A stretch of 11,814 nt of DNA, taken from the IMG/VR virus record IMGVR_UViG_2579778952_000005, positions 1 to 11,814 of that record; one strand, given 5' to 3'. How positions within the stretch are numbered: position 1 is the first letter of the stretch; every line of letters begins with the position of its first letter. The position numbers were made by a program, and so were the translations under genes. Below are positions 1,795 to 9,649 of this stretch, in pieces. The notes beneath the pieces are model-generated. The model was not told the origin of the DNA. It made no database searches and saw only the letters and a program-made list of their open reading frames with translations. Source of the stretch: a virus. Taxonomy: Duplodnaviria; Heunggongvirae; Uroviricota; Caudoviricetes.

Positions 1795-2261
1795 CAGATA
1801 TCCGTATCGCTGCTCAACTGCACCAACCCCTTTTGGGTTGTGGTGGCATCCATTGTTCTTATGCTGTCGAAAATCTTCTTTACACTTTCTGCATATTCGG
1901 CTGCCGCTTCCGCATTCGCCCTGGCGTGAGACACCAGTTCCTCAAGGTGGATTATCACTTCAGGCCTGGCATTCTGCTCAGTGAATTTCAGTAAAAAATC
2001 ATTCAGCGCCCCAGGCTGAGAATCTTCGTAAACGGTGATGTCCCCTATATTCGATGGTGGATAACCATCAACCAACAGGGTGACGCTGTACTGTCCATAC
2101 TCAACGTCCATACTGTAACGCCCGGTTTCATCCGATCTGACTGAAGCTACAGTACTTGCCAGCACCGTGGTGCTGTGACGCCTTGCCGTCAGCTGAATGA
2201 TGCCATTCTGTATTGGTTTACCTGCACCGTCTTTCAGCACACCTGAAATCTTTACTGCCAT
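1794..2261 (-). CDS. stf: Side tail fibre N-terminal (tail-attachment) domain, 155 aa
   Basis: MAVKISGVLKDGAGKPIQNGIIQL...GRYSMDVEYGQYSVTLLVDGYPPS...ITVYEDSQPG closely matches the N-terminal domain of E. coli prophage side tail fibres (StfR type) as recalled. ATG at 2261 is preceded by GGGGAG. The ORF-track start at 2267 is a GTG two codons upstream. Confidence 0.8.
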   Translation of the reverse strand: MAVKISGVLKDGAGKPIQNGIIQLTARRHSTTVLASTVASVRSDETGRYSMDVEYGQYSVTLLVDGYPPSNIGDITVYEDSQPGALNDFLLKFTEQNARPEVIIHLEELVSHARANAEAAAEYAESVKKIFDSIRTMDATTTQKGLVQLSSDTDI

Positions 2262-2319: not shown

Positions 2320-5300
2320 TCAACTGATACTGATACCTGCTGTTGATTTCTTCATCACCACAACCAGTAAATCGCTGATACTTGCTGTGGGATACCAGCC
2401 ATTTACCAGCCAGGCTGACACAGAAAATTCCAGCCTCATGTGACCGTGACCGGCAGGCATATCAATAACGCCACTGTAAATCAGCGTATTATCCAGCGCA
2501 GTACGGTTATAAATTTCAGCACCGTTTTTCCGCACTATCAGACGGCATGAGGAGTAAATATCAGTATGATTTCGCTCATGCTTAGCGCCGCTGAATGCCA
2601 CCGCCGGAATAACAATCTGTCGGTCAAACGGCTGATCGTCATAAATCCTGACGGTAATGGTCCCTGATGGCCACCGTTCCGGTGCACGGGAGTCCCGGGG
2701 GAAAGCTTTACCCACTGTTTTAACGAGATCGCCTTCAATCTGGTTCGCGGACAGTTTTCCCAGAACCCGGCAGTTCTTGTTAATCGTGACGTTGTTGAGC
2801 GTCCCGGCGTTCGCATTCACGTTACCGCTGATATCCGCATTTCTCGCCGTCAGTCGCCCGTCCGGTGTCAGGGAAAATGCCGGAGGATTGCCACCACTGG
2901 TAATGGTGGGGGCCGTCAGGCGTTTCAGGAACACGTCATTCATGAATATCTGATCACCCTGCGCCACAAACATCGGCGTTTCATTTCCGTTTGCCGGGTC
3001 AATAAACGCGATACGGTTAGCGGCAACCAGGAACTGGCTCAGTTTGCCTTCCTCCGTATCCTCCATGCTGAGGCCAAGCCCCGCGACATAATGTTTGCCG
3101 TCTTTGGTCTGCTCAATTTTGACGCCCCACATGGCATTCCATTTATCGTTGGCGTCCTTCCACTCTTTCGAAAACTCCTCCAGTTTGCTGGCGTTATCTT
3201 CCGTCAGCTCAAAGTTTTCCAGCAGTTCCTTGCCGAGATGCGTTTTATTGATCAACCCTTTATAAAAATTCAGATAACCTTCCGCATCATCGCTCGCCCG
3301 ACCAACGGCCTCCACAAATGCCGATTTACCAACGGTGTTCACGCTGCGGATATAAAAGTAATAATCATAACCCGGCTTAATATTGCTACTGGCGGCTATC
3401 CAGTACAGCGCCGTACCAAGATAACGCGCGCTGGTTTCAACCTGCCTGATATCGATAATCCGCTTTTCCGAGAACCAGAACTCAAACTGCACCGTCGGGT
3501 CATATACAGCCAGTTTCGGGACCGCTGTTATCTGAAAATACCCTGGTATCAGTTCAATAGTGACAGGCGCTGCCGGTGCCGCAATCCGGAACGATACCGA
3601 TGCCGGATCGCCCTGCTGCCCCCACGCATTTACCGCCCGGACCGTCAGCGTGTAACGCCCCAGCGCCAGTTGCCTGAAGCGGTATGTGGTTTCCGTCGTC
3701 CGGGCCGTGCTGACCAGCCGCTCACTGCCGTCATCCGCTGCCACGGTCAGGCGAAGCATAAAGCTCACGCCCTTCACCACCTTCGGTGTGTCCCATCGCG
3801 CCAGCACCTGATATTCCCCGCTGTCTGCAGTGACTTCTGCGGTCAGGTGCTGCACCGCTGGCGGCGTGACACCATTCACCGTGCCACTCTGTTCGCCGTC
3901 AAAGTGCGCCCCGTTATCCACGATGGCCTCTTTTTCCGGCACATGCTGCACGGCGGTGATGGCATACGTGCCGTCGTCGTTCTCACGGATACTCACGCAG
4001 CGGAACAGTCGCTGGCGCAGCGTCGGCAGCTTCAGCCCCCATACGCTGTATTCAGCAACACCGTCAGGAACACGGCTCACTTTTACCTTCACGCCGTCGG
4101 TGACGGACTGAACCTCCACGCTGACCGGATTGCCACTTCCGTCAACCAGGCTTATCAGCGTGGTACCGGAGGATGGCAGCGTGATTTCACGGTCGAGCGT
4201 CAGCGTCCGGGTCTGGCTGTTCACCGCCAGCACACGACCACCGGTGCTGATACCGGCATAGTCATCATCACAGATTTCAATAACATCGCCCGGTACATGG
4301 CGAAGCCCTTCTGCGCCGACGCTGAAATCCACGGTCTGCGTTTCCAGCAGTTCTGTTTTAATCAGCCACAGCCCGGCGCGGTGTGCCTGCCCCCGACTGG
4401 TACAGCCAAAGGCATCCATCTTCGTGACGTTACGACCGTAACGGGCAATGGCCTGCGTGTCCTCCACAAGCTCTGTCGCCGTCTCCCAGCCGTTATCCGG
4501 GTCAATCCAGTTCACCTCAACGGCATTATGGCGGTCCTTCAGGGCGCTGAAGCTGTAGCGGAACGGCGCGCCATCATCCGGCATCACCACATTACTGCGG
4601 TTATAGGTCCACACCTTATCTGATGGTCGGTCCTGCACGAACGTCAGCGTCTGCCCGTTCCATACCGGCATACAGCGCATCGCCGAGCAAAAATCACTGA
4701 GCACATCCCACGCCTTGCGCTGTGTGGTCAGGTACGCATTACAGGTAATGCGCGGCTCCGTGCCGCCAAAGCCATCCGGCACTGACTGGTCGCAATTCTG
4801 GCCGATGACATACAGCGCCCATTTATCCACATCCGCTGCACCAAGACGTTTCCCCATGCCGTAGCGCGGATGGGTCAGCATATCCCACAGACACCAGGCC
4901 ATGTTGTTGCTGTATGCCGGTTTAAACGTTCCGTCCCAGATACCGCTGTATTGTCGCGTCTGCGGGTTATAGTTCGACGGCACCTGCAGAATGCGCCCGC
5001 GCAGATGATAATTACGGCTCACCTGCTGGCTGCCGAACTGCTCCGAATCCACCTGCACGCCGACCAGTGCCGTGTTCGGGTAGCACTGTTTCACATCGAT
5101 GATTTCGGTGTATGACGACCAGAGCGTTTTGTTCTGCAGCTGGTCTGTGGTGCTGTCCGGCGTCATCCTGCGCATCCGGATATTAAACGGGCGCGGCGGC
5201 AGGTTACCCACCACCACCGAGGCCAGATACTGCGAGGTGGTTTTGCCTTTAATGGTGATGTCTTTTTCCGTCACCCAGCCACCGTTACGCTGTATCTGAA

Positions 5301-5715
5301 CCAGCAGGCGGACTTCCGATGGATTCCTGTCCCCCTTTGAGGTGGTTTCCACCAGTGCCTGCACACCGAAGGTAAAACGCAGACGGTCGATGTTTGCCGA
5401 CGTGATGGTCCGGGTGATCGGCGTATCATATTTCACTTCCGTACCCAGCACCGTCTCGGAGCCGGAGGATTCAAACCCCTCCGGCGGTGACTGCTCCTGC
5501 TCACCGGCCCGGAACACCACCGTGACGCCGGATATATTGGTATTCCCCTCACTGTCCAGCACCGGCGTACTGTTCAGCAGCACGCTTTTTAATCCATCCA
5601 CCGGACCTTCAACCGGCCCTTCGCTGATGGCATCGATCACACTCAGCAACTGCGTGGACTTCAGGTTGTCCTTCGCTTCGCGCGGGGTATGCCCCTTACT
5701 GCTGCCTTTACCCAT
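2320..5715 (-). CDS. J: Tail tip host-specificity protein J (central tail fibre), intact, 1131 aa
   Basis: 1131-aa ORF, within one residue of lambda gpJ length, lying directly downstream of I as in lambda. Identity rests on length and synteny; the sequence match to lambda J was not checked. Confidence 0.93.
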
Positions 5716-5775: not shown

Positions 5776-6447
5776 TCATCGACCAATCACCACAACCTGA
5801 CCACCATCCCCTTCGTCTGCCGTGCTGATCTCCTGAGAAATCACGCGTGACCCCACGCGCATTTCACCGTACAGAACGGGCAGAACATTGCCCTGGGCAA
5901 CCATGTTATCCAGTGAGGAGAAATACGTGTTCTGCTTACCGTTATCCGTTGTCTGTGTACGGGGAGTTCTGGCTTTCGGTGCCAGCATCTGCGCCACACC
6001 ACCGAGCACCATACTGGCACCGAGAGAAAACAGGATGCCGGTCATACCACCGGCCCCAATGGCTGCCCCCCATGCTGCAAGGGTGGCTCCGGCGGTAAAG
6101 AATGATCCGGCAATGGCGGCTGCTCCCAGGACAATCTGGAATACACCACCTGACTTGGCCCCGGCGACTCTGGGAACAATATGAATCACAGCGCCATCAG
6201 GCAGAGTCTCATGTAACTGCGCCGTTAATCTGGACGTGCTGACGTCCCGCCCGGCAATCCGTACCTGATACCAGCCGTCGCTCAGTTTCTGACGAAACGC
6301 CGGGAGCTGTGTGGCCAGCGCCCGGATGGCTTCAGCCCCCGTTTTCACACGAAGGTCGATGCGGCGGCCAAATCGTTGCAAATCCCCGTAAAGGCAGATG
6401 CGTGCCATTCCCGGTGACGCCAGAGGGAGTGTGTGCGTCGCTGCCAT
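5776..6447 (-). CDS. I: Tail assembly protein I
   Basis: 223-aa ORF, the same length as lambda gpI, with a Gly/Ala-rich hydrophobic C-terminal half. Its start lies 103 nt inside the 3' end of K, the same out-of-frame overlap as in lambda. Confidence 0.92.
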   Translation of the reverse strand: MAATHTLPLASPGMARICLYGDLQRFGRRIDLRVKTGAEAIRALATQLPAFRQKLSDGWYQVRIAGRDVSTSRLTAQLHETLPDGAVIHIVPRVAGAKSGGVFQIVLGAAAIAGSFFTAGATLAAWGAAIGAGGMTGILFSLGASMVLGGVAQMLAPKARTPRTQTTDNGKQNTYFSSLDNMVAQGNVLPVLYGEMRVGSRVISQEISTADEGDGGQVVVIGR

Positions 6448-7088
6448 TTGTCGGTATACCTCTCTCGTTTACTCAGTTGTTCAGGAATATGGTGCAGCAG
6501 CTCGCCATCACCACAGTAAATGGCGGCATGATTCGGCACCGATGAACCAAAGCAGCACAGCAGCACGTCGCCAGGCTGCGCCTCTGTCAGTGCGACACGG
6601 TAAAAACCAGTCGCCTCCATATTGTCAAGATAGAGATTCTGACCGTTACGCCACCAGTCATCCCCGCGATGAAAATCCGGCATCTCAATCCCCGCCAGAT
6701 GATAAGCATCCCGGAACAGCGTGTAACAGTCCGTCACCCCGTGCTCAAAGCGACGCCCGGTGAGATGCGGCACACAGCGGAACTTGTGAATCGCCCCCCG
6801 GCAGACCAGCCACCACGGCAAATCACTCTGCACCTGCAGCCGCCGGTCAGCATCACTCAGCCAGGGCAGACCTCCGGGGTGGCTGTGGACCAGCGCCACA
6901 ATCTCACCCTGCATTTCTGCCTGCAGCCAGTCTTCCGGCGACATACGGAAATACGCCTCCGGCTCACCGGAGATATTCACGCAGGGAAAATATCTTTCCC
7001 CCTCCGGCGTGCTTACCACGAAGCCGCACGACTCCGCTGGCGCACATCGCCGGGCGTGCGCCAGAATCGCTGATTCTGTCTCTGTCAT
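6345..7088 (-). CDS. K: Tail assembly protein K (JAB/MPN plus NlpC/P60 domains)
   Basis: Contains a JAMM-type motif HSHPGGLPWLSDAD and an NlpC/P60-like Cys/His region (GVTDCYTLF, PNHAAIY). Start chosen at ATG 7088 (MTETES...). The ORF-track start at 7163 is a GTG overlapping L. The classical 199-aa lambda K would start at the internal M at 6944. Confidence 0.85.
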   Translation of the reverse strand: MTETESAILAHARRCAPAESCGFVVSTPEGERYFPCVNISGEPEAYFRMSPEDWLQAEMQGEIVALVHSHPGGLPWLSDADRRLQVQSDLPWWLVCRGAIHKFRCVPHLTGRRFEHGVTDCYTLFRDAYHLAGIEMPDFHRGDDWWRNGQNLYLDNMEATGFYRVALTEAQPGDVLLCCFGSSVPNHAAIYCGDGELLHHIPEQLSKRERYTDKWQRRTHSLWRHREWHASAFTGICNDLAAASTFV

Positions 7089-7092
7089 GGGA

Positions 7093-7716
7093 TTACTGCG
7101 AAAGTTTGTTAATGGAAAGGAAGCCGCCAAAGTTGCCGACGTTATTGCGAAACTTACAGCCACTCAGGCATTTGCTGCATTTATCTTTCGTGATATCGGA
7201 CGTCGGCTGGTCATATTCATCCGCGACAGCCGGACCGCTATAACCGCACTCGTCACCGCGATAGGTCCAGGTGCAGGTGTTGGCCAGCATGATACGTCCC
7301 GGAAAAACAGCGCCATCCGTTTCCGTCGGCGTGGACAGTACAAAGGAGGCACTCACCGCGCTCAGTTCGCTGCACTGCTCAATGCGCCAGCGGCTGATCA
7401 CCTCCTGCTCCGGATCGGCGTCACTGTTTCCGTTGACGAAGTTCACCGCATCCAGAAAACAGGCGTAAACCTTACGCCGGACCACCGTTCCGCCGACCAG
7501 ACTCTGCAGATCTTCCGCCATCCCGGTGACCATACCGTACAGGTTAGAAACCGTCAGCGTGGGGCGCGTACTGGTGCCTTTGCCATTCAGTTCAAAACCA
7601 CTCCCCTGAATGGGATACGGCTGATACTGTCGCCCCTGCCAGGTGACCGGCTCACCTTTTTCGTTCTGCTCATTACAGAAAAAATAACGTTCTCCACCGA
7701 CCTCTGTCAGGTCGAT
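7093..7716 (-). pseudogene. L: Tail tip protein L, 5'-truncated (lacks about the first 25 codons and its start)
   Basis: Frame reads [37 protein letters not shown]...MVTGMAEDLQSLVGG...CSKCLSGCKFRNNVGNFGGFLSINKLSQ, matching lambda gpL from about residue 26 to the end, including the C-terminal Cys cluster. Upstream, the frame hits TAA at 7726-7728 inside V-derived sequence. First ATG is at 7533. Confidence 0.85.
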
Positions 7717-8200
7717 TTGCCGCTGTTACCGTGCTGCGATCTTCTGCCATCGACGGACGGCCCACATTGGTGACTTTCACCGTGCGGGTGATCACTTCCT
7801 TCGCCGTCACCGCCTTACCGATACTGCTGACCCAGCCACGGAACACATCGACCGTGCCGTTCGGGAAGCGGATTTTATAGGCACGGGTATCGCCTTCATT
7901 AAACCACGCCAGCAGCGCCTGCTGCCCCTGCTCTCCGGGCATCCACGCCAGCGTGAAGCTGGTATCTCCGGCAGATTTCTGCCCCTGCCCGGTCGCAGTC
8001 CAGTCTGCATCTTCATCATCGAGATAGCTGTCGTCATAGGACTCAGCGGTCAGTTCGCCGGGCGTCAGGTCTTTAACTTTTGCCAGACGCGACCAGTCAA
8101 CGTCTGAAAGCGGATTCGCATAAGGGTCACCGCTCCCCTTATAAACCCACAGGGTGGTCCCGGCACCTTTCACCGGCATTGTAGGATTTGGTACAGGCAT
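7673..8200 (-). pseudogene. V: Major tail protein V, 3'-truncated (residues 1 to about 161, then 14 out-of-frame codons)
   Basis: [45 protein letters not shown]...RSTVTAA matches lambda gpV as recalled. After codon 7720-7718 the sequence becomes L-derived and the frame ends [18 protein letters not shown]. ATG at 8200 is preceded by GAGGA and lies 7 nt after the U stop. Confidence 0.85.
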
Positions 8201-8207
8201 AGCGTCC

Positions 8208-8603
8208 TCACATTTCATAGGTAATGACATAAGTCATATCGGCTGAACTCCACAGGCCCGCATCATCGTCGCGCCGGTAGTCATAGCCACTGACCACCAT
8301 ACTGGTGATCAAATCTGACAGTGCCGGGATATCGCTCATCACCGGATAAATCCGGGACTCCATCCACGCATCCAGCTCTGAATTCGGCACCTGAGCAGGC
8401 AGGAAAACTTCGATATGCAGCTCCGCCTGCCAGGTATCGCTGTCCAGCTCTTCGCCCGTGTATTCAGCGCCGGTGAGATAAACGGCAACTGCCGGAAAAT
8501 CCGCCTCATCAAAAACAGCGGGGCGACCATCAAAAAACGTCGCCCCGGTGTCATGCTTCTCCAGTGCATCCAGTACGGCTGCACGGAGTTCAGTATGTTT
8601 CAT
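8208..8603 (-). CDS. U: Tail terminator protein U
   Basis: 131-aa [53 protein letters not shown]... matches lambda gpU at the same length. Its ATG overlaps the upstream stop in an ATGA arrangement, as for Z-U in lambda. Confidence 0.93.
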
Positions 8604-9649
8604 CGCTTTATTACCATCCTCAGTTGATGCTGCAGCGCATAGCCCAGCTCTTTCGGAAGACGTTCACGCCGTATCCGCTCAATATTCTGTTTAAACGCCG
8701 TGGTCAGCGGCACCGCCATCGGGATTTTCACCACATCAATGGGGTAACGGTTTTTCCCGGCCACACGCTGCATAACATGCCACCGGCCGTTTTTCAGTTG
8801 CTGAATAAACGCGCCGGGAATACGACGGTTACCCACCACAAGCACGCTGCCGCCACCTTTCAGGGATGAACGCTGCCCCTTTTTACGACGCCTGCGGCGG
8901 GACAGGACAACCCGCGCATTACCCAGCTTGATTACGGGCAAATCCCCCCGGTTAACTTTGATTCTGGCCTGCGGATTTTTGACCGTGGCCCTTTTCAGCC
9001 TGGCCCTTTCCTTTACCAGTTTCCGGCGTACCTTTGTCTCACGGGCAACCTGTGACGCAGACTGCGATATCGCGGATGAAGCAACGCGGTTATCCTCATC
9101 AAAGGCAGCAAGTTCATCATAACCCGCCACATCCACTGACTTTTCACGGTAGTTTTTTGCCGCTTTACCGCCCAGGCACCAGAAGCCACGCCCATTGGTG
9201 AAACGCTTCATGGTGAGCGTGTTATCCCGGTGCTTTTTGCCATACCACGGGGCCAGCGCCAGCAGCGACGGAATATCACGAATAGTCGGCTCAACGTGGG
9301 TTTTCATAAAGTTCTCGGCATCACCATCCGTCGGCAACCAGATAAGGGTGTTGCGCTGCTTATGCTCTATGAAGTAGGCATAAACACCCAGCAGCATTTT
9401 GGAATAACCAACACGGGCAGACTTCACCACATTCACCTCGCGGATGTAGTCACTGCCCATCGCATTCATGATGGCCCGCTGAAAGGGCAGTGTTTCCCAG
9501 CGCCCTTCCTGGTATGCGGATTCTTTCGGGAGATAGTAACTGGCATCCGCCCATTCAACGGCAGTCTGTGGCTCCGGCCTGAACAGGGCTCGCAGCCCGG
9601 CGCGTACATCACGCCGCAGAATATCAATCTGACTGTTCGATATATTCAC
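8600..9649 (-). pseudogene. In-frame fusion: terminase large subunit A N-terminus (about 185 aa) joined to tail completion protein Z C-terminus (about 163 aa)
   Basis: Residues 1-185 (MNISNSQ...VVKSARVGYSK Walker A...DVAGYDELAAFDE) match the lambda gpA N-terminus. Residues 187-349 (NRVASSAISQSASQVARETKV...LRMVIKR) match lambda gpZ from about residue 30 to its C-terminus. GTG start at 9649 overlaps the Nu1 3' end by 26 nt, as in lambda. Confidence 0.85.

Follow-up and report, generated by a model that had tools for sequence, protein, structure and literature searches.

Introduction

The chromosome of Escherichia coli K-12 carries Rac, Qin, DLP12 and e14, lambdoid remnants that have become fixed there; internal deletions and IS insertions have cost them structural genes, while some tail-fibre, lysis and recombination genes are kept. 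In lambda itself, the tape measure protein gpH acts with gpG and gpGT to start tail polymerisation and to set the length of the tail, and gpM and gpL are rings of the tail tip.

In the tail tip, gpM, gpL and gpH are structural components; polymerisation of the tail is started by the tape measure and its chaperones, and residues 1-166 of gpL make up a single beta-sandwich domain (PMC10721106). The tube protein gpV has an N domain (residues 1-156) and a C domain (157-246), and when lambda V is deprived of its C domain tails still form, with an activity around 100-fold lower (PMC8718954). Prophages span all states from intact to highly degraded, the degraded ones being common (PMC7744054).

The DNA analysed here, hereafter the window, is a stretch of 11,814 nucleotides from E. 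coli strain 2-011-08_S1_C1 that holds the late genes of a lambda-like prophage, in which an original prediction, made from the sequence alone, had placed a deletion joining the tail genes V and L. When compared to the V-G-T-H-M-L block of lambda (NC_001416, 8955-14127), the window shows the same gene order and the same flanks, with U, K, I and J present in both, but it is devoid of the Ig-like domain of V, of G, T, H and M, and of codons 1-24 of L, and the two remnants are mutually out of frame. As in the cryptic prophages of K-12, some tail-fibre, lysis and recombination genes are kept; in contrast to them, this element is younger, each of its deletions can still be placed with single-base precision by comparison with an intact relative of almost the same sequence, and point damage has not yet accumulated in the genes that it retains.

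Complete genomes of E. coli yielded such intact, near-isogenic relatives, likewise located between potC and potB, in E200139 (Mali), E200086, 100117 (Gambia) and 100248. These sister prophages resemble the window in their site, in their late-gene flanks (98-99.4% identical) and in the stretch from the lysis genes to cos (99.9%), but they keep the 4104 bp (V-L), 6790 bp (A-Z), 1396 bp (stf) and 4975 bp (immunity and replication) that were lost in the lineage of the window. In E200139 and 100117 the V-G-T-H-M-L run is complete, with 98.0-98.1% identity over Z-U-V and 99.3-99.4% over L-J.

The same functional block has been lost independently in a prophage of E. coli H3 (NZ_CP028732.1, trp/ompW region), where codon 84 of G is joined to codon 2 of L, as G(1-84) to L(2-232), with removal of T, H and M (positions 9447-10387 of the extracted locus, L005). 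Unlike the window, this prophage has another phage backbone, with a V protein 78% identical to that of lambda, other breakpoints and intact head genes, and a separate I-to-lom deletion has cost it J (11099-12079 of the same locus). This independent deletion indicates that loss of the G-to-L block recurs.

Gene Content of the Window

The late genes of the prophage lie all on the minus strand of the window, as read from the ORF listing, tblastn with lambda proteins and Pfam. The gene for the terminase small subunit, nu1 (9624..10169), is intact by tblastn and Pfam, and is followed by an ORF of 349 aa (8600..9649), an in-frame A'-'Z chimera made of codons 1-186 of the terminase large subunit gene and codons 24-192 of Z. 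The tail terminator gene U (8208..8603) is also intact, matching lambda over residues 1-131 at 97.7% identity and showing the Pfam domain Phage_tail_U. Next come V' (7673..8200), a truncated major tail tube gene, and 'L (7093..7718), a minor tail (hub) gene truncated at its 5' end. Beyond them, K (6345..7088), which encodes a JAB + NlpC/P60 tail-tip assembly protein, and I (5776..6447), for a tail assembly protein, are intact by tblastn and Pfam, and so is J (2320..5715), for the central tail fibre of 1131 aa, by the ORF listing and tblastn. Partly deleted side-tail-fibre remnants occupy positions 352-2267, and an IS1 element is found at the contig end (1-366), with its InsA ORF at 43-318.

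A Deletion of About 4.1 kb Joins V to L

When the reverse-complemented window was aligned to lambda (NC_001416) by blastn, the Z-U-V side (window 9092-7717) matched lambda 8063-9438 at 99.0% identity and the L-K-I-J side (window 7721-2783) matched lambda 13499-18437 at 95.3%. Both flanks of the junction align with E = 0, so chance is no issue. A base-by-base display against lambda placed the switch from V to L, expected near 7718, at 7717/7718 on the minus strand (junction 7717..7718). The alignment to the lambda V and L genes suggested along with the original prediction thus mapped the breakpoint and revealed what its two sides share: in the displays against lambda and the comparison loci L003 and L004, the only exact bases in common are AA (window 7718-7717), corresponding to lambda 9437-9438 on the V side and 13502-13503 on the L side. 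The 5-base overlap of the BLAST blocks at the join is an imperfect GGcAA/GGgAA. The longest repeat at the V/L junction is 2 bp, and neither an IS nor an att site was observed there.

The deletion amounts to 4065 bp with respect to lambda, whose bases 9439-13503 are absent, and to 4104 bp with respect to the closest intact sister prophages at potC/potB, whose tape-measure gene is 39 bp longer than that of lambda. The segment lost comprises codons 162-246 of V, the whole of G, T, H and M, and codons 1-24 of L. The anticipated loss of about 4 kb with G, GT, H and M is therefore borne out, with T lost too and hence the G-T frameshift product. Codon 161/162 of V is joined to codon 25 of L in a different reading frame, which places L in frame +1 with respect to V at the junction. 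Although 4065 and 4104 are both multiples of three, the join is out of frame because V and L lie in different frames.

The V and L Remnants

Residues 1-161 of V are 100% identical to lambda gpV by tblastn. On translation, the V frame runs through STVTAA into 14 codons derived from L sequence and ends at TAA (7675-7673), followed by a TGA, just as the predicted 14 nonsense codons and stop. The product has 175 residues, and the exact protein is already in GenBank (e.g., KDA58424.1). The N-terminal tube-forming domain is retained, since the Pfam profile Phage_TTP_12 is matched over positions 1-135 of 135 (E 7.5e-71). [quoted passage not shown] In E400634, E500002 and E600003, RefSeq labels V' as a pseudogene, "phage tail tube protein, missing C-terminus". 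Given that its tube domain is complete and that V without the C domain forms tails, V' need not be an inert product, and it could be a folded protein provided that the late operon is ever transcribed.

The other half of the junction retains residues 25-232 of L, 98% identical to lambda gpL by tblastn. Its sequence begins at the second base of codon 25, the first whole codon is Ile26, and from there it continues to the native stop; the start codon is absent. What had been read as the loss of the start and of 25 or so codons is thus, to the base, the loss of 24 codons plus one base. The Pfam profile Phage_tail_L is matched over positions 1-206 of 206 (E 2e-100). The L frame contains a TAA three codons 5' of Ile26, and no usable start (ATG, GTG or TTG) was found for 'L before Met87, at window position 7533. 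RefSeq labels this half as a pseudogene as well, "phage minor tail protein L, missing N-terminus". No additional stops or frameshifts were detected in 'L, K, I and J, and U is without disabling mutations.

Extent of the Loss in the Complete Prophage

The window is 99.97% identical to a locus of E. coli E400634 (L002, 40 kb including the host flanks) that holds the complete prophage, of around 29 kb, flanked by potC and potB; the int and xis genes at one of its ends are intact. A set of 21 lambda head and tail proteins was searched against this locus by tblastn, and matches were obtained for nu1, A 1-186, Z 24-192, U, V 1-161, L 25-232, K, I and J. The original prediction had allowed that G, T, H and M might lie elsewhere in the element in a rearranged order; none of them was found in the complete E400634 prophage, and W, B, C, D, E, FI and FII were likewise absent from the whole of it in the same search. 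The same queries recovered all the missing head and tail genes in the intact sister L003. Being absent from L002 yet detected in L003, the missing genes are not rearranged within the element.

Further Deletions in the Lineage

Three more deletions were mapped. The junction between A and Z (9092/9091, minus strand), with a 2-bp microhomology TA, reflects the loss of 6795 bp with respect to lambda (6790 bp with respect to the sisters) and is in frame; the resulting A'-'Z chimera carries the N-terminal part of GpA_ATPase and Minor_tail_Z, and the exact protein is in GenBank (KDA58426.1). The third deletion, inside stf, has removed 1396 bp with respect to the intact sister L003; its junction falls within window 1801-1816, with an exact 4-bp microhomology, CGGA, at 1801..1804, and it was present in all the copies long enough to reach the site. 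At none of the V/L (AA), A/Z (TA) and stf (CGGA) junctions were inserted bases, IS, att sites or long repeats present.

The fourth deletion lies beyond the window, in the E400634 prophage, between dicB and a DUF4406 gene, where 4975 bp are missing (L002 6443-6577 against L019 11021-15992). In E200139 this stretch carries genes for an HTH repressor, Cro/CI and YdaT, along with the replication genes. This immunity and replication deletion was seen in the one complete prophage examined, that of E400634.

Distribution of the Junction

Of 5426 complete E. coli genomes, three carry the V/L junction at 100% identity, namely E400634 from Kenya, E500002 from India and E600003 from Bangladesh; a 34-mer spanning it matched one gut-type metagenome contig. 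In E500002 and E600003 the junction query gave a single match each, and a second lambda-like copy of V/L was therefore not detected in either. Read through the exact 175-residue V', it occurs in at least 24 public contigs (NCBI, ENA, Logan). The junction is therefore already in public databases, with both of its halves flagged as pseudogenes in RefSeq. Among the 142 matching records of a phage collection, none covered at least 80% of the junction query and none spanned the junction. An exact scan of GTDB representatives with the 34-mer gave no match, which is uninformative because one E. coli genome is represented there.

In the copies that were fetched, the V-L and A-Z junctions appeared together (12 of 12), and whenever a contig extended far enough the stf junction was present as well. 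The carrier copies are 99.8-100% identical.

Origin and Status of the Locus

The V/L junction is very probably the non-functional scar of a single illegitimate deletion of about 4.1 kb, and the element a grounded cryptic lambdoid prophage. One such event, resting on a microhomology of 2 bp, would have removed about 4.1 kb of the late operon from a lambda-like prophage located between potC and potB in E. coli; from general knowledge of illegitimate recombination in this species, replication slippage or RecA-independent end joining would be the likely routes. Lost along with this segment would be the Ig-like domain of V, G and G-T as chaperones, H as the tape measure, M as the distal tail protein and, from L, the start and codons 1-24; without H, G/GT, M and L neither a tail initiator nor a tube of defined length would be expected. 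With three more deletions in the lineage, from A to Z (all head genes), in stf, and in the repressor/cro/replication block, the element would be inherited vertically as a grounded cryptic prophage. None of the observations contradicts this reading.

The absence of capsid, portal, complete terminase, repressor and replication module supports this status. As in defective prophages, the element is integrated in the chromosome beside an integrase and in lambdoid order, and its virion genes have been lost when compared to the intact L003. From this gene content we infer that the element cannot form particles, and V' and 'L would be without function.

Other readings were weighed against this one. 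That the junction was created by assembly, V and L having been collapsed or chimerically joined in a short-read draft contig, might be suspected because the window is the reverse complement of an entire draft contig of 11.8 kb (JMGQ01000081.1) with its end inside IS1, i.e., a repeat-limited assembly. However, the identical junction recurs in complete chromosomes of three strains, each from a different country, in a metagenome assembled independently and in the 24 contigs from NCBI, ENA and Logan, and the repeat at the junction is of 2 bp at most, with nothing longer to mislead an assembler, so the chance of an artefact is practically negligible. It is also extremely unlikely that the junction yields a functional product, be it a V(1-161)-L(26-232) fusion made by +1 recoding on a T-run or an L protein started non-canonically. 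L does lie in +1 relative to V, with a T6 run two codons before the V' stop (TTA TTT TTT CTG TAA), the Pfam domains are complete on both sides, and one public annotation (L015) calls a 205-aa L ORF overlapping V'. Nevertheless, the T-run belongs to the native coding sequence of L, is the same in lambda, L003 and L004 and was not made by the junction, there is no known +1 signal, and the A site beside the slippery codon holds neither a stop nor a rare codon. In addition, the loss of residues 1-24 should damage L, whose residues 1-166 are one beta-sandwich domain (PMC10721106), and a V-L fusion would have no place in a tail without H and M. The recoded fusion of V' to 'L was rejected for the native origin of the T6 run and the absence of a recoding signal.

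A different question is whether the remnant serves some purpose. The element could be a helper-dependent, cos-bearing, mobilisable (satellite-like) element, or a domesticated module (nu1, U, the tube domain of V, K, I, J and stf/tfa) kept by selection, as might be thought from the retention of a cos-like site and of an intact nu1, the intact int and xis of E400634, the lack of disabling mutations in U, K, I and J, the complete tube domain of V', and the finding of carriers in Kenya, India and Bangladesh. Against this, the site is the same potC/potB locus wherever the flanks were examined, which is consistent with vertical descent and not with transfer, the terminase large subunit is cut after 186 residues, and the gene fragments are out of frame or start-less, with no streamlined architecture. 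At around 29 kb the element is well under the stable packaging size of a lambda-type capsid, and the junction is restricted to three of the 5426 complete genomes. The identity of 99.8-100% among copies also makes the intactness of the genes little evidence for selection. Annotation of the complete element revealed ordinary lambdoid order, truncated fragments and no replication or regulatory module left, which separates it from PICI and cf-PICI satellites. The gene content of the element, its size and its fixed place in the chromosome led us to reject a cos-mobilisable satellite as the main explanation, and the whole of this reading, domestication included, is most improbable. We likewise consider it unlikely, to nearly the same degree, that the remnant is maintained rather than drifting, with the V tube-domain protein expressed and U, K, I, J and the tail-fibre genes kept in a globally spread lineage; if it were so, a domesticated use would be possible, for example the exclusion of lambdoid phages by poisoning tail assembly, or alternatively a role as a recombination reservoir of tail-tip genes. 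The absence of lesions in 'L, K, I and J means either that the decay is recent or that these genes are still constrained, and among copies that are 99.8-100% identical the lack of additional lesions tells little about selection.

Taking the locus as a decayed prophage, its annotation should read cryptic prophage with V' and 'L pseudogenes, and not candidate active phage or tail-like machine. Beyond correct annotation the case matters little, as this is ordinary prophage decay. Its modest value lies in the four deletions mapped to the base against near-identical sisters at the same site, three of them inspected base by base and lying on microhomologies of 2-4 bp, which makes the locus usable for studying the rate and mechanism of prophage grounding.

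Other Features of the Window

In the strain of the window, the IS1 element interrupts the distal tail-fibre gene, which is left with 329 aa against 331-375 aa in relatives. No match to the IS1/tail-fibre junction was obtained in complete E. coli genomes, and the insertion is private to this strain or its lineage.

The metagenome copy (L006), the one diverged copy, differs from the window by 22 substitutions, of which 19 are clustered in around 400 bp (6852-7252) that cover the 5' half of K together with the 3' end of L; they are too few and too clustered to inform on selection. The cluster resembles a patch acquired by recombination from another lambdoid sequence, and such a patch of around 400 bp in K between two copies indicates that exchange with other lambdoid sequences has occurred.

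A cosN-like 12-mer was detected at window 10346-10357 on the minus strand, GGGCGGAAGGCG against GGGCGGCGACCT in lambda, with 5 of the 12 positions different; the 33 bases after it (lambda 13-45) are identical to those of lambda, and over the stretch from the lysis genes to cos the sister prophages are 99.9% identical to the window. Finally, a small ORF on the minus strand (11322-11504), located 3' of the lysis genes, shows a lipobox-like motif (LLVGC); its product may be a spanin-like or other prophage lipoprotein, the relatives being annotated as hypothetical only.
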